Shown piece after piece: positions 1 to 6,344 of a DNA stretch of 64,000 nt. Both the position numbers and the translations under genes were made by a program. Origin of the DNA: Escherichia coli (GTDB lineage: Bacteria > Pseudomonadota > Gammaproteobacteria > Enterobacterales > Enterobacteriaceae); the NCBI RefSeq assembly GCF_050920415.1, contig NZ_CP169309.1, one strand, 5' to 3'. The first letter of the stretch is position 1; each line of letters begins with the position of its first letter. The notes beneath the pieces are model-generated. The model was not told where the DNA came from, ran no database searches, and saw only the letters and a list, made by a program, of their open reading frames with translations.

Positions 1-643
1 CATTGACGGGATTATTCTTTCGGAAAAATATCACACCATCAGGACGGTGAAATTTCTGCGTTCAGCCACCATTCCGGTCGTGGAATTGATGGATGTACAG
101 GGAGAACGGCTGGATATGGAGGTCGGTTTTGATAATCGGCAGGCCGCTTTTGACATGGTGTGTACCATGCTGGATAAGCGAGTCAGGCGCAAAATTCTGT
201 ATCTCGGTTCCAAAGATGACACCCGCGATGAACAGCGTTATCAGGGGTATTGCGATGCGATGATGCTGCATAATCTTTCCCCGTTACGCATGAATCCACG
301 CGCCATCTCATCCATTCATTTAGGAATGCAATTAATGCGTGATGCCCTTAGCGCAAACCCGGATTTAGACGGTGTATTTTGCACCAATGACGATATTGCG
401 ATGGGTGCGCTTCTGCTGTGCCGCGAGCGAAACCTCGCCGTGCCAGAACAAATTTCCATTGCGGGTTTTCATGGGCTGGAGATTGGCAGGCAAATGATCC
501 CAAGCCTCGCCAGCGTAATTACTCCCCGTTTTGATATTGGTCGGATGGCCGCCCAAATGTTGCTGAGCAAAATTAAAAATAACGATCACAACCACAACAC
601 TGTTGACCTCGGGTATCAGATTTATCACGGTAACACGCTTTAG
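1..643 (+). CDS. idnR: LacI-family transcriptional regulator, 3' fragment (gene begins upstream of window); likely L-idonate regulator
   Basis: Open frame runs from position 2 with no stop to TAG at 641-643; C-terminal sugar-binding-like sequence; position immediately upstream of yjgR matches K-12 synteny. Confidence 0.6.
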
Positions 644-720
644 GTTATTTTCTCTTCATTACACGTATTCTCTTTGCCGGACGTTGCCTATACTCCAGGC
701 AGGAAACTGGAGGAAATCTC

Positions 721-2223
721 ATGAGCGAACCCCTGTTAATTGCCCGCACGTCGGACACAGAACTGTTTTTATTGCCGGGAATGGCTAACCGTCACGGGCT
801 GATTACTGGCGCAACGGGGACGGGTAAGACCGTTACGCTGCAAAAACTGGCGGAGTCATTGTCGGAAATCGGTGTACCGGTGTTTATGGCTGATGTAAAA
901 GGCGATCTGACCGGCGTCGCGCAGGCAGGAACTGCGTCGGAAAAACTGCTCGCAAGGCTTAATAATATCGGCGTCAATGACTGGCAACCACATGCTAATC
1001 CGGTGGTGGTGTGGGATATCTTTGGCGAGAAAGGCCACCCGGTGCGGGCGACGGTTTCAGACCTGGGGCCGCTGTTGCTGGCACGACTGTTGAATCTCAA
1101 CGATGTGCAATCTGGCGTGATGAATATTATCTTCCGCATTGCGGACGATCAGGGATTGTTGCTGCTCGACTTTAAAGATTTGCGGGCGATTACCCAGTAC
1201 ATCGGCGATAACGCCAAATCCTTCCAGAATCAGTACGGTAATATCAGTAGCGCATCGGTTGGTGCCATCCAGCGCGGGCTGTTATCGCTGGAACAGCAAG
1301 GCGCAGCACACTTCTTTGGTGAGCCGATGCTGGATATCAAAGACTGGATGCGTAGCGATACCAAAGGTAAAGGCGTTATCAATATCCTCAGCGCTGAGAA
1401 GCTTTATCAGATGCCGAAACTGTACGCCGCCAGCCTGCTGTGGATGCTTTCAGAGTTATATGAACAATTGCCGGAAGCGGGCGATCTGGAGAAACCAAAA
1501 CTGGTGTTTTTCTTCGACGAAGCACATCTGCTGTTTAACGATGCGCCACAGGTACTGCTGGATAAGATTGAGCAGGTGATAAGGCTTATTCGCTCAAAAG
1601 GCGTGGGCGTCTGGTTCGTTTCGCAAAACCCGTCAGATATTCCGGATAATGTGCTCGGACAGCTCGGTAATCGCGTTCAACACGCTTTGCGGGCTTTTAC
1701 GCCCAAAGATCAGAAAGCAGTAAAAGCTGCGGCGCAAACCATGCGGGCCAATCCGGCGTTTGATACCGAAAAGGCAATCCAGGAACTGGGGACCGGCGAG
1801 GCGTTAATCTCGTTTCTCGATGCGAAAGGAAGTCCTTCAGTGGTGGAACGGGCGATGGTTATCGCGCCTTGTTCGCGAATGGGGCCGGTGACGGAAGATG
1901 AGCGTAACGGCCTGATTAATCACTCCCCGGTGTATGGCAAGTACGAGGATGACGTGGACCGGGAATCCGCCTATGAGATGTTGCAAAAAGGCTTTCAGGC
2001 CAGTACCGAGCAGCAAAATAATCCTCCCGCGAAAGGGAAAGAGGTGGCGGTGGATGACGGTATTCTTGGTGGATTGAAGGATATTTTGTTTGGCACTACC
2101 GGACCACGCGGCGGGAAGAAAGATGGTGTGGTGCAAACAATGGCGAAAAGCGCCGCCCGCCAGGTGACGAATCAGATTGTACGCGGTGTGCTGGGGAGTT
2201 TGCTGGGGGGGAGAAAAAGGTAA
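721..2223 (+). CDS. yjgR: P-loop NTPase of the DUF853 / HerA-like family, uncharacterized
   Basis: 500-aa ORF with Walker A GATGTGKT near N-terminus; SD ggagg 7 nt upstream of ATG; recognised YjgR sequence. Confidence 0.85.
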
Positions 2224-2243
2224 GTCAGGTGCGATTTGTCTTT

Positions 2244-2282
2244 GCCTGATGCGACGCTGGCGCGCCTTATCATGCCTACACT
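2244..2282. repeat. REP-like palindromic unit
   Basis: gcctgatgcgacgctggcgcgccttatcatgcctaca resembles the REP consensus seen elsewhere in the window. Confidence 0.5.
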
Positions 2283-2383
2283 ACTGCAATATATTGAATT
2301 TTCATGATTTTTCAGGCATGAACGAAGCACACTTTGCTAACAATAATAAAGGGAGCTTTCGCTCCCCTTATACGTTCATCCAG

Positions 2384-3466
2384 TTACGATTTTCTCATTA
2401 ACAGCCACAGGCTGATTAAGAAGAAGCTGGCGCTTGGCAACAGTGCGCCGATGATCGGCGGGATGCCGTAAACCAGCGTCAGCGGGCCGAAGATCTGGTC
2501 CAGTACGTAGAAGACAAAACCGAAGCTGATACCGGTGACCACACGCACGCCCATCGGCACGCTACGCAGTGGGCCGAAGATGAACGACAGCGCCATCAGC
2601 ATCATCACCGCCACGGATAACGGCTGGAAGATTTTGCTCCACATGTTGAGCTGATAACGTCCGGCATCCTGACCGCTCGACTTCAGATACTTCACGTAGT
2701 TGTGCAAACCACTGATGGAGAGTGCATCCGGGTCCAGCGCCACCACGCCCAGTTTGTCTGGCGTGAGGTTGGTTTTCCAGGTGCCGCTCACCGTCTGCGA
2801 ACCGGTGATCTGTTTCGGATTGGTCAGATCAGATTCATCAACCTGCGACAGACGCCAGACTTTATGTTCCGGGTCAAACTTCGCGGTAGCGGCATAGCGT
2901 ACAGATTCCAGACGACGATTCTCATTAAAGGCATAGATACTGATGCCACCTAACTCTTCGTCACCTTTAACCCGCTCAATGTAGACGAAGTTGTTGCCAT
3001 CTTTTGCCCATAAACCTTGCTGGGTAGAGAGCAACGAGCCACCGTACATCGCCTGCGCACGGTAGTTACGCGCCATCTGCTCGCCCTGCGGTGCGACCCA
3101 TTCGCCAATCGCCATCGTCAACAAGACCAGCGGAATGGCGGTTTTCATCACCGACAGCGCCACCTGCATACGGGTAAAACCAGAAGCCTGCATGACCACC
3201 AGTTCGCTGCGCTGCGCCAACATCCCAAGACCAAGCAACGCCCCAAGCAGAGCCGCCATCGGGAAGAAGATTTGCACATCTTTCGGCACGCTCAGCAAGG
3301 TATACATTCCTGCGCCTAACGCGTCGTAACTCCCCTGCCCGGCTTTTTTCAGCTGATCGACAAACTTGATAATGCCCGACAGCGACACCAGCATGAACAG
3401 CGTCATCATGATGGTGGTGAAAATAGTTTTACCGATATAGCGGTCAAGTACGCCAAAAGGTTGCAT
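2384..3466 (-). CDS. lptG: LPS export ABC transporter permease LptG
   Basis: 360-aa membrane protein starting MQPFGVLDRYIGK; ATG overlaps lptF stop by 1 nt. Confidence 0.9.
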   Translation of the reverse strand: MQPFGVLDRYIGKTIFTTIMMTLFMLVSLSGIIKFVDQLKKAGQGSYDALGAGMYTLLSVPKDVQIFFPMAALLGALLGLGMLAQRSELVVMQASGFTRMQVALSVMKTAIPLVLLTMAIGEWVAPQGEQMARNYRAQAMYGGSLLSTQQGLWAKDGNNFVYIERVKGDEELGGISIYAFNENRRLESVRYAATAKFDPEHKVWRLSQVDESDLTNPKQITGSQTVSGTWKTNLTPDKLGVVALDPDALSISGLHNYVKYLKSSGQDAGRYQLNMWSKIFQPLSVAVMMLMALSFIFGPLRSVPMGVRVVTGISFGFVFYVLDQIFGPLTLVYGIPPIIGALLPSASFFLISLWLLMRKS

Positions 3467-4566
3467 CACACCGCTCCTTTACGCGAAAAACTGGCGCGCA
3501 GGCGGCGGACCGGCACGGTGTCCCAAAGGTTGAGAACAATCGCCAAAGCCAGATAAATCAGGTTTACGGTCCACATCCACAGCGTCGGGTCCAGCTTACC
3601 TTTACCGCCGTTCGATTTCAGGGAGGTCTGGATCAGGAAGAACAACAGATACAGCAGCATGGCTGGCAGCATCGACAGTACGCGCCCCTGACGCGGGTTA
3701 ACCACGCTCAGCGGAACGACCATAAGCGCCATCATAAACACGGTGAATACCAGCGTGATACGCCAGTTCAGTTCTGCGCGGGCACGATCGGTGTCAGTGT
3801 TCCACAATGTGCGCATGTCCATCTGGTCAGTATCGTTCGGGTCGAGCGCCACCGCCTGGTGACCAATGATCGCCTGATAATCCTGGAAGTCCGTAATGCG
3901 AAAATCACGTAACAGTGCAGTGCCTTCGAAACGCGTTCCCTGGTTGAGAGTGACGACCTGGGAGCCGTCGCGCAGCTGGGTTAAATGTCCGGAATCGGCC
4001 ACCACCACAGAAGGACGTGCATTACCTTTTGGTCGAATTTGCGCGAGGAACACATCTTTGAAATCGCTGCCGTCAACGCTTTCGATGAACAGCACCGAGC
4101 TGCCATTAGTCGCTTGCTGGAATTGCCCTTGCGCCAGCGCCGCCATGCCAGGGTTCGCTTTCGCTTCTGCTAACACTTCATCCTGATGACGCGATGACCA
4201 CGGTCCCGCCCACATCACGTTAACCGCCGCGACGATTGCCGTGAATACCGCAAGGATCATTGCCGCTTTCACCAGAACCGCTTTGCTCAAGCCGCAGGCA
4301 TGCATTACCGTAATTTCACTTTCGGTATACAGTTTGCCCAGCGTCATCAGCAGCCCGAGGAACAGGCTTAATGGCAGGATAAGCTGCGCCATTTCCGGCA
4401 CGCCCAACCCGAGAAGGGAGAGCACCAGATTCGCCGGAATATCGCCGTCAACCGCTGCGCCGAGGATCCTCACTAACTTTTGACAGAAGAAGATCAAAAG
4501 CAAGATGAAGAGTATCGCCAGCTGGCTTTTGAGCGTCTCCCGCACCAGATATCTTATGATTATCAC
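3466..4566 (-). CDS. lptF: LPS export ABC transporter permease LptF
   Basis: 366-aa membrane protein MIIIRYLVRETLKSQ...; GTG start; operon with lptG. Confidence 0.9.
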   Translation of the reverse strand: MIIIRYLVRETLKSQLAILFILLLIFFCQKLVRILGAAVDGDIPANLVLSLLGLGVPEMAQLILPLSLFLGLLMTLGKLYTESEITVMHACGLSKAVLVKAAMILAVFTAIVAAVNVMWAGPWSSRHQDEVLAEAKANPGMAALAQGQFQQATNGSSVLFIESVDGSDFKDVFLAQIRPKGNARPSVVVADSGHLTQLRDGSQVVTLNQGTRFEGTALLRDFRITDFQDYQAIIGHQAVALDPNDTDQMDMRTLWNTDTDRARAELNWRITLVFTVFMMALMVVPLSVVNPRQGRVLSMLPAMLLYLLFFLIQTSLKSNGGKGKLDPTLWMWTVNLIYLALAIVLNLWDTVPVRRLRASFSRKGAV

Positions 4567-4829
4567 TTTAAATACGCCCGTAAAAACTCGTCTTTTGCAG
4601 GATTTTAGCTTGTTTCATGGCTTAAACGTCATTTATTCTCTTGAGTCGTCGAAATCGTCGCTAAGATAATTATACTCAACGGATTCACCTCTCAGATTTT
4701 GTTCTGACGTGCCAATGCCGTAATAACGTTAAGATTAACACGAAGTCATCGCAACAGCGGACATGAGTTACGAAAGCTTGCAATTCTATCTGTAGCCACC
4801 GCCGTTGTCTTTAAGATTCAGGAGCGTAG

Positions 4830-6344
<1,515 letters not shown>

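Follow-up and report, generated by a model that had tools for sequence, protein, structure and literature searches.

What does the ring ATPase encoded by yjgR do in Escherichia coli, and where in the cell does it act? The gene is already known, and it is among the best-conserved E. coli genes without an assigned function. In the 64,000-nucleotide stretch of E. coli DNA analysed here (contig NZ_CP169309.1; hereafter the window), it lies downstream of idnR, whose stop is at position 643, and is followed by the convergent lptG (2384-3469, minus strand). The initial annotation, made from the letters of the window, had described a 500-aa P-loop ATPase of the DUF853 family with kinship to HerA-type ATPases.

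721-2223, plus strand: yjgR coding sequence, ATG start, 500 aa plus stop (ORF list, Pfam, RefSeq annotation, PDB 11kk match)

The reading frame is intact, and a chance ORF is excluded by the family match, the structure match, and near-universal annotation; the ORF list, Pfam, the 11kk match, and the RefSeq yjgR annotation all agree with the 500-aa assignment. The DUF853 assignment is likewise sustained by a full-length match to PF05872 (HerA_C, formerly DUF853; E=1.5e-252, 839 bits, cut-off 22), in which aa 5-500 of YjgR correspond end to end to profile positions 3-502 of 502, and DUF87, the HerA central domain, also lies above its Pfam cut-off. PDB 11kk ("HerA like helicase YjgR", the K-12 protein, six chains) is approximately 98% identical to the window protein, with 10 aa substitutions. 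K-12 YjgR (UniProt P39342) is encoded at the same idnR-lptG locus, and nothing of substance differs between the two proteins. Thus, the window gene is the known E. coli yjgR, a YjgR-family (PF05872) member in the HerA clade of FtsK-HerA ring ATPases, and the family comprises thousands of sequence clusters. The proposed kinship with HerA-type ATPases holds for HerA, FtsK, VirB4, and VirD4, at the superfamily level only (profiles, Foldseek). The statement that no role is established in E. coli still describes the literature, which contains 'uncharacterized' mentions, lists, localisation tables, one ATP-binding proteomics report, and a structure without a paper; in the literature searched, we found neither a functional study of YjgR, DUF853, or the HerA-like helicase nor a paper accompanying 11kk.

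Four elements define the catalytic part of the protein:

721-2010, plus strand: ATPase core, aa 1-430 (AlphaFold2, Foldseek, profile alignment)
808-831, plus strand: Walker A GATGTGKT, aa 30-37 (sequence, family alignment)
1501-1521, plus strand: Walker B LVFFFDE, aa 261-267, followed by A268 and H269 (family alignment, HerA alignment)
1591-1638, plus strand: putative arginine finger R291, plus a strand whose last residue is the polar Q302, aa 291-306 (family and HerA alignments)

The core consists of a RecA-like P-loop domain, a helical insertion at approximately aa 112-215, and a small C-terminal beta subdomain, and the AlphaFold2 model has a pLDDT above 90 for most of aa 1-410. In a family alignment of 30 diverse sequences (38-58% identity), the motifs Walker A, DxKGD, Walker B DEAH, and RSKG...SQ all fall in invariant or nearly invariant columns of YjgR. 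Within the Walker A, previously reported as GATGTGKT and read again as such at aa 30-37, no sequence departs from G30 or K36, whereas G33, G35, and T37 are nearly invariant; HT-PELSA proteomics places ATP-stabilised YjgR peptides in or beside the P-loop (bioRxiv 10.1101/2025.04.28.650974). At Walker B, A268 is invariant and D266 and E267 are nearly invariant, and the stretch aligns with IIAVIEEAH of Sulfolobus HerA. Within aa 291-306, G294 is invariant, R291, S292, and Q302 are nearly invariant, and the segment aligns with REGRKFGVGLTIVSQRP of Sulfolobus HerA, where R291 stands opposite HerA R381, a residue that we take to be the arginine finger of the enzyme in 4d2i. By this alignment, R291 is likely the arginine finger of YjgR.

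Structure prediction, which had been suggested as a check, returned a HerA-like core. Using the AlphaFold2 model of YjgR as the query, HerA hexamers were the best Foldseek matches (E ~1e-14, TM ~0.5), with DndH-C, TrwB, and DotL also matched, and the structural alignments between YjgR and HerA contain 13-17% identical residues. The HerA proteins of Sulfolobus (4d2i), Thermococcus (9x1m), and Deinococcus (7wrw) have the RecA-like core and the same Walker A in common with YjgR, and the two groups further share D-x-(K/H)-G-(D/E), the Walker B (D/E)EAH, an R-K-x-G...SQ-x-P block, and a GEA(l/i) strand. With respect to oligomerization, both the core fold and R291 align with HerA, and 11kk contains six chains, the number expected of a HerA-like ring. 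However, HerA carries an N-terminal HAS barrel, which YjgR lacks, beginning about 125-135 residues 'late'; in the profile alignments, YjgR position 8 corresponds to residue 127 of Sulfolobus HerA and position 22 to residue 157 of the 8wiv HerA. The NCBIfam HerA equivalog models also fail for YjgR (38 bits versus 800 for NF040937, 29 versus 970 for NF040819). Whereas HerA is partnered by NurA, often together with Mre11 and Rad50, yjgR has no such neighbours, and relative to HerA the protein has an added linker and a basic amphipathic tail.

FtsK/SpoIIIE belongs to the same superfamily, and the Pfam FtsK_SpoIIIE profile reaches 21 bits on YjgR (cut-off 24), covering the P-loop at aa 18-47 only. 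In FtsK, N-terminal TM helices provide the anchor, and a C-terminal gamma domain reads KOPS sites. In contrast, YjgR has neither the N-terminal TM anchor nor the gamma domain, and its putative anchor would be C-terminal and peripheral. Approximately 29 residues precede the YjgR Walker A and form two short beta strands in the model, leaving no room for a TM helix.

The C-terminus had been characterised as a Gly/Lys-rich tail. Its composition is confirmed (G 18%, K 10%, and R 7% in aa 430-500), and the tail can be divided more precisely into a variable linker and, after it, a conserved motif that is basic and amphipathic:

2011-2127, plus strand: variable low-complexity linker, aa 431-469 (family alignment, AlphaFold2)
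2059-2094, plus strand: short hydrophobic helix in the linker, aa 447-458, in E. coli and close relatives
2128-2220, plus strand: conserved basic amphipathic C-terminal motif, aa 470-500 (64-sequence consensus, hydrophobic moment, AlphaFold2)

The linker is unalignable and length-variable across the family, the tail past aa 425 ranging from 25 to 278 aa with a mode near 72-75, and AlphaFold2 models it with a short helix at 450-457 and a pLDDT below 50. The consensus of the motif, GRxhxRGhhGshKK in 64 sequences, falls at aa 478-500 of YjgR, and the motif persists among relatives whose overall identity is 38-58%. Its hydrophobic positions are 81-100% conserved, and its anchor position is occupied by R in 58 and by K in 6 of the 64 sequences, in a set picked by a regular expression that fixes K/R at this position. 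The low-confidence AlphaFold2 model of this part (pLDDT below 50) has a helix at 470-494, and the hydrophobic moment of 0.75 is among those of the top 11-residue windows of YjgR (the third distinct segment, after aa 278-293). The motif is about 24 aa long and has a period of 4 residues, not 3.6; placed as a whole on a standard helical wheel, it is only weakly one-sided (0.30). Both features, like the low model confidence, count against a tether.

Comparison across the family indicates that the nature of this C-terminal end varies. A basic amphipathic end, either the motif or a similar one, is present in 67 of 91 family members with a complete core, and six of the 91 carry a TM-like hydrophobic segment in the tail, which in five lies at the C-terminal end. 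RcZahn gp71 and Klebsiella phage N133 gp059, both phage proteins, have TM-like segments at the C-terminal end. In some relatives, TerD, Ltp, or GYF_2 domains replace the tail motif, and a generic targeting or partner-binding module therefore fits as well as a lipid anchor. The new comparative point is a modular, predicted C-terminal targeting element, which in most cases is a basic amphipathic helix and in some a transmembrane segment, and in YjgR itself the motif is probably a membrane-targeting or docking helix.

The closest comparison for such an element is provided by the targeting sequences of MinD and FtsA, which are short C-terminal basic amphipathic helices ending in h-h-G-x-h-K/R, as in YjgR; the C-terminus of MinD reads ...KKGFLKRLFGG. 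However, the folds of MinD and FtsA are unrelated to that of YjgR, whose motif is longer (~24 aa, with the four-residue period) and whose membrane binding is predicted. STEPdb places YjgR among the peripheral inner-membrane proteins, and published proteomics recorded 17 YjgR peptides in membrane preparations. In the sucrose gradient of Sueki et al., the YjgR profile was called 'soluble', a call shared by MinD, MreB, and FtsY, and the cytoplasmic control YjgM received the same call with a broadly similar profile. Because the YjgM profile is alike, the gradient data are non-discriminating and constitute no proof of YjgR membrane binding.

The genomic distribution of yjgR was examined at the levels of species, order, plasmid, and phage. 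Of 5426 complete E. coli genomes, 5425 carry the gene, with a median of one copy at a fixed locus, and it belongs to the core genome of the species. Odd identity bands among E. coli genomes reflect a generally divergent window strain, and the idea of a special yjgR allele was rejected. Conservation of the neighbourhood, also named as a check in the initial annotation, was followed in 80 genome loci by ORF clustering and in 6 distant contigs, and no partner gene is conserved across orders; nor were NurA, Mre11, Rad50, Sir2, nuclease, or T4SS genes found near yjgR in the window, the 80 loci, or the 6 contigs. YebC, HemF, PurD, RlmH, RsfS, and Upp were discarded as candidate partners, their proximity being Burkholderiales synteny only and absent outside that order. 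Adjacency to lptG is lost in Enterobacter and Yersinia. On true plasmids yjgR is rare: of the 31 plasmid records that match, 27 are non-mobilizable, and among the 15 listed at least 6 are chromosome-sized (3.7-5.4 Mb). Phages carry close YjgR homologues, with the N133 copy located near a primase-helicase and a recombination exonuclease, and the RcZahn copy near RecA-like, resolvase, Cas4, and ligase genes.

We propose that YjgR, a stand-alone housekeeping member of its family, is a hexameric motor held reversibly at the membrane and probably working on DNA, a reading to which we assign a probability of about 50%. Six YjgR subunits would form a ring in which ATP is hydrolysed at the subunit interfaces, with R291 acting in trans, and the ring would draw a polymer, of which DNA is the most probable, along or through itself. 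A flexible linker of approximately 40 aa would join this motor to the basic amphipathic C-terminal helix, which, by comparison with the helices of MinD and FtsA, may reversibly hold the motor at the cytoplasmic face of the inner membrane. The proposed layout would resemble that of FtsK in combining a ring motor, a long flexible linker, and an inner-membrane tether, with the order reversed to motor, linker, anchor. DNA is favoured as the substrate because of the superfamily precedent and the location of the phage copies in replication and recombination modules, although the support from the phage modules is weak, since early phage regions consist mostly of DNA genes anyway. A broader proposal, which we advance tentatively and with considerable doubt, is that the YjgR family could represent a hitherto unrecognised kind of DNA pump, tethered to the membrane by its C-terminus and thus a counterpart of FtsK with reversed topology, conserved as a single-gene housekeeping function across Proteobacteria and several other phyla and borrowed by phages, with true TM anchors, for handling DNA at the membrane.

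The tail result turns an 'unknown ATPase' into a concrete and cheaply testable idea, namely a DNA motor whose membrane localisation would depend on its tail. If this is true, E. coli would possess a second membrane-tethered ring translocase besides FtsK, and the deposited YjgR structure would acquire a physiological frame; if it is false, yjgR stays an ordinary uncharacterised housekeeping ATPase.

The HerA-aligned core and the label 'helicase' given by the 11kk depositors would also suit a soluble cytoplasmic enzyme, a helicase or translocase of DNA repair or recombination comparable to HerA of the HerA-NurA system, whose nuclease or other partner is encoded elsewhere and whose tail, instead of binding the membrane, binds DNA or that partner, or braces the neighbouring subunit. 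The terminal extensions of the HerA in 4d2i reportedly embrace neighbouring subunits, which would provide a precedent for such a brace. The Arg-rich tail with its regular four-residue spacing, the 'soluble' gradient profile (Sueki et al.), and the recombination genes adjoining the phage copies point in the same direction. However, no NurA, Mre11, Rad50, or other nuclease neighbour accompanies yjgR in the lineages examined, the HAS barrel is absent, the hydrophobic TM-like tails of several relatives and phages are unexpected for a DNA-binding element or a brace, and a long, length-variable linker is unusual for a structural brace; we consider this soluble enzyme a serious but unlikely alternative. 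Distinctly less probable is a membrane-associated motor with a non-DNA substrate, which might, for instance, pull out or reshape proteins or parts of the envelope at the inner membrane. The indications that the tail is an anchor would suit such a motor as well, E. coli yjgR adjoins lptFG, and VirB4 and some other clade members are thought to act on proteins. Against this reading, the adjacency to lptG is lost even within Enterobacterales, no envelope gene recurs beside yjgR across orders, and the superfamily members that have been characterised mostly move nucleic acids.

As a core chromosomal gene without conserved effector or secretion neighbours, yjgR offers no support for a role in either defence or conjugation. 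As an anti-phage ATPase, YjgR would be the equivalent of the HerA of Sir2-HerA or DUF4297-HerA, or of mad8 of MADS, with which it shares the HerA-clade core. PADLOC yields partial matches, in which mad8 covers aa 23-366 (E=1e-19) and several HerA models cover aa 257-369 (E of 1e-13 or weaker), and the fold is like that of the defence HerA hexamers. However, a gene found at a fixed locus in 5425 of 5426 E. coli genomes is not patchy or island-like. It stands outside any eight-gene mad operon and has no adjacent effector, and no Sir2, DUF4297, nuclease, or mad1-7 neighbours occur in the window or the related loci. With the NCBIfam anti-phage HerA models, whose cut-offs are 800-850 bits, YjgR reaches 17-18, the protein has no HAS barrel, and close homologues occur in phages themselves, all of which makes a defence function very improbable. 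Descent from, or membership in, a conjugation or type IV secretion system, as a coupling protein or VirB4-like component, deserves almost no credence and is effectively refuted by the genomic context. Although TrwB_AAD_bind, TraC, VirB4, and TraD give weak matches and TrwB and DotL appear among the Foldseek matches, the profile matches are limited to the P-loop, spanning about 40 residues around Walker A (aa 20-64 for TrwB_AAD_bind), and with the TraC, VirB4, and TraD models the scores are 15-22 bits, where more than 500 is required. There is also no N-terminal TM segment and no T4SS or relaxase neighbour, and the plasmid records with a match are largely non-mobilizable (27 of 31) and, in at least 6 of the 15 listed, chromosome-sized.

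The initial view was also that yjgR stands alone with its own SD. Two upstream elements bear on this view:

689-694, plus strand: -10-like hexamer TATACT, probable own yjgR promoter (upstream alignment)
709-713, plus strand: Shine-Dalgarno GGAGG, 7 nt before the yjgR ATG (read from sequence)

The Shine-Dalgarno and the lack of a conserved partner bear the view out, and the -10-like hexamer is kept from E. coli to Yersinia; the part that does not stand firmly is the separation from the genes upstream, as the interval from idnR to yjgR yielded no terminator and read-through from the idn operon into yjgR is therefore possible. A simple promoter scan detected no full sigma-70 -35/-10 pair upstream of yjgR. 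When the sequences upstream of the gene in E. coli, Citrobacter, Enterobacter, and two species of Yersinia are aligned, however, the best-conserved block is GTTGCCTATACTC / GTGCTTATAATC, and the GGAGG/GAGG block is also kept. On the basis of this conservation, yjgR probably has its own promoter at TATACT. An Rfam scan of positions 1-5000 returned just two sub-threshold matches, both REP-related and located downstream of yjgR.

YjgR is an ATP-binding P-loop ATPase of the HerA clade, encoded by a stand-alone gene and carrying a modular C-terminal element. The initial annotation had read here a 500-residue protein with a Walker A motif and a Gly/Lys-rich tail, standing alone between idnR and lptG with a Shine-Dalgarno sequence of its own and belonging to the HerA-related DUF853 family; these observations are confirmed in every particular (aa 430-500 contain 18% Gly and 17% Lys+Arg), and their interpretation is supported. 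The ORF is annotated as yjgR in E. coli MFDS1022581, which is 100% identical to the window, and 5425 of the 5426 complete E. coli genomes carry the gene. The features of the locus are as follows:

721-2223, + strand: yjgR CDS, uninterrupted ORF with ATG start and 500 codons
808-831 (aa 30-37), + strand: Walker A motif GATGTGKT, read from the sequence
7 nt before the yjgR ATG, + strand: Shine-Dalgarno GGAGG, read from the sequence
stop at 643, + strand (as yjgR): idnR, upstream neighbour
2384-3469, opposite strand, convergent with yjgR: lptG, downstream neighbour
689-694, + strand: TATACT/TATAAT within the conserved upstream block, from a five-species upstream comparison
2128-2220 (aa 470-500), + strand: tail segment, with the tail motif at aa 478-500, from alignment
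2230-2290, directly past the yjgR stop: REP-like palindromic element, from sub-threshold Rfam matches
2346-2371, - strand: strong hairpin terminator of convergent lptG, after the REP-like element

Upstream of yjgR, five enterobacterial species have in common a single strongly conserved block with TATACT/TATAAT inside, which points to a promoter of its own for yjgR; a search of the idnR-yjgR interval for a terminator found none. The sub-threshold Rfam matches in the REP-like element are naRNA4 at 2243-2275 (+, E=0.46) and ES036 at 2272-2311 (-, E=0.001).

Membership of PF05872 (HerA_C, formerly DUF853) is near certain, with an end-to-end match at E=1.5e-252, and the DUF87 ('HerA central domain') cut-off is also passed. 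The K-12 protein structure is deposited as PDB 11kk ('HerA like helicase YjgR'; 503 residues, six chains), to which the window protein is ~98% identical with ten substitutions; a literature search for a paper on this structure found none. Structure prediction, which the initial annotation had proposed, places the core beside HerA hexamers: an AlphaFold2 model based on 30 diverse relatives has high confidence over aa 1-430 (mean pLDDT 87, pTM 0.82) and low confidence in the tail, and Foldseek matches the core to HerA hexamers from Thermococcus (9x1m), Sulfolobus (4d2i) and Deinococcus (7wrw), to Sir2-HerA complexes, and to the DndH C-domain, TrwB and DotL, with TM-scores near 0.5 at 13-17% identity.

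At the motor level YjgR would work like HerA or FtsK, although it scores as a member of neither. Against the NCBIfam equivalogs nothing comes near a cut-off (best CedD, 50 bits versus 600), and the HerA models among them give 29-38 bits where 800-970 are required; the FtsK_SpoIIIE score likewise falls under its cut-off. Unlike FtsK, YjgR has neither an N-terminal TM anchor nor a gamma domain, and unlike HerA it has no NurA partner and no HAS barrel. The family profile aligns with Sulfolobus HerA in two blocks; in the P-loop block, YjgR position 8 faces HerA residue 127, so that the ~125-residue HAS barrel is missing. In the second block, comprising the Walker B and sensor region, YjgR LVFFFDEAH is paired with HerA IIAVIEEAH, and HerA DVGEAII is among the other paired stretches. 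In this profile alignment R291 stands opposite HerA R381, which we take to be the arginine finger of HerA, and R291 is on that ground a candidate arginine finger. In E. coli lysate, HT-PELSA detected binding of ATP to YjgR, with the stabilised peptides in or beside the P-loop (bioRxiv 10.1101/2025.04.28.650974).

An exhaustive HMMER search returned 7822 clusters (50% identity) at E<=1e-3 and 1666 at E<=1e-30. Neighbourhood conservation across genera was assessed by calling and clustering ORFs in 80 loci from a scan with one genome per species, which covered Enterobacterales, many Burkholderiales, Alpha- and Gammaproteobacteria, Acidobacteriota, Verrucomicrobiota, one spirochaete and one Negativicute; for six distant members the neighbours were read from precomputed Pfam annotation. 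The sole recurrent neighbours over the 80 loci (a YebC-family gene, HemF, PurD, RlmH, RsfS and Upp) occur exclusively or almost exclusively at betaproteobacterial loci, most of them from Burkholderiales, and the six distant members have entirely different neighbours. The YebC/PmpR-family gene lies directly upstream and divergent at 23 loci (including genome loci L010, L013 and L014; median gap 59 bp); since this adjacency occurs beyond the Betaproteobacteria only at one Bradyrhizobium locus, it is probably local synteny. Within Enterobacterales, lptG adjacency is found in Citrobacter and is absent from Enterobacter and Yersinia. Relatives occur on only 31 of 72,556 plasmid records, 27 of them non-mobilizable, and at least 6 of the 15 records listed are chromosome-sized (3.7-5.4 Mb). 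Taken together, distribution, neighbours and plasmid data identify yjgR as a stand-alone housekeeping gene that belongs to no HerA-NurA, defence or secretion module. A defence ATPase is very improbable, as yjgR is a core gene, an effector neighbour was not found and close homologues occur in phages; that YjgR is a conjugation component is scarcely credible. One metagenome-assembled contig (locus L087) carries two family genes in tandem, at 2194-3672 and 3812-4268.

In the 30-relative alignment the conserved core stops near aa 425 (...DRESAxE), followed by an unalignable stretch of variable length, and conservation returns in the last ~25 residues. The consensus of 64 tails, picked out and anchored with a regular expression fixing the core [KR][GSN][h][h][GENKS], is [KR]-S-h-h-R-S-h-G-R-x-h-G-R-x-h-h-R-G-h-h-G-S-h-K-K. 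Conservation is informative outside the fixed core, where hydrophobic residues occupy -6 (81%), -2 (91%) and +6 (93%) and basic residues -12, -8 and -4 (41-55%); within the selected core, the anchor is R in 58/64, with G at +1 in 75% and at +4 in 86%. AlphaFold2 predicts, with low confidence, a helix at 470-494. The motif's 11-residue hydrophobic moment of 0.75 is among the protein's highest, third after overlapping windows at aa 278-293; the full-length motif repeats its basic, small, hydrophobic and variable stripes every four residues exactly, versus 3.6 for a simple amphipathic helix, and plotted on a standard helical wheel it is only weakly one-sided, at 0.30. Among 91 representative complete-core members, 47 carry the motif, 20 another basic amphipathic end, 6 a TM-like hydrophobic segment in the tail (in five of them at the very C-terminus), 13 other tail types and 5 short tails. 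Long C-terminal extensions contain a TerD domain, Ltp (Lipoprotein_Ltp) repeats or a GYF_2 domain. In the representative proteins P0142, P0152, P0146 and P0235 one of these stands where the motif would, which suggests that the C-terminus may be an exchangeable targeting module.

Relatives are encoded in 31 phage records, and core homologues at three phage loci (L089, 6935-8431; L090, 6956-8305; L091, 6001-7365) share 44-51% identity. Their C-termini are TM-like in Rhodobacter phage RcZahn gp71 (...AEVLGVLLIGVLIGVGLTLIMT) and in Klebsiella phage N133 gp059, which has two hydrophobic segments there, and a basic amphipathic stretch in Xanthomonas jumbo phage Xoo-sp13 gp68. The N133 and RcZahn homologues sit in replication/recombination modules. 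The N133 gene comes after a primase-helicase and a methyltransferase, and behind it are an exonuclease associated with recombination and a nucleotide kinase; the RcZahn gene is surrounded by a RecA-like recombinase, a pair of resolvases, a Cas4 exonuclease and a ligase. Around the Xoo-sp13 gene there are hypothetical proteins that carry no annotation.

We propose that YjgR subunits would form a hexameric ring with inter-subunit catalysis via R291, that a C-terminal helix on a ~40-residue flexible linker would attach the ring reversibly to the inner membrane, and that the ring would translocate or remodel DNA; this whole chain, a hexameric, reversibly membrane-attached motor acting on DNA, has a probability of about 0.5. 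By superfamily precedent and the position of the phage copies, DNA is the probable substrate. A membrane motor with a non-DNA substrate is unlikely. As the amphipathic helix is conserved and interchangeable with transmembrane segments, a membrane anchor would be its simplest reading, and we hold a tether function to be slightly better than an even bet. Experimental annotation from an independent source is in partial agreement: the supplement to Sueki et al. 2020 (PMC7055658) lists YjgR in membrane preparations (17 peptides) with the STEPdb class peripheral inner-membrane and calls its sucrose-gradient pattern 'soluble'. The accepted amphipathic-helix membrane binders MinD, MreB and FtsY were given this call too, on profiles nearly identical to that of YjgR, and FtsA was assigned to IM; because plain cytoplasmic YjgM is also 'soluble' with a broadly similar profile, the gradient neither proves nor disproves the tether. 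A soluble repair helicase, whose tail would bind to DNA, to a partner or to the adjacent subunit, is a less probable alternative to the membrane-attached motor.

YjgR is a plain member of its family, and with gene and family already known and a structure deposited, little is new in yjgR itself; added here are the evidence against defence and conjugation roles and a hypothesis on the conserved tail that can be tested. In published genome-wide lists, SELEX peaks of the RpoH and RpoE holoenzymes fall within yjgR and its transcript is among those processed by MazF, without follow-up in the papers concerned. The window strain is unusually divergent over 721-6344 (yjgR, lptG, pepA), where only 1-3 of the 5426 complete E. 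coli genomes reach 99% identity or more in these genes; usual identities are 97.3-97.8% for lptG, 95.8-96.3% for pepA and 94.3-96.2% for yjgR, and YjgR protein identity stays at 97-98%.
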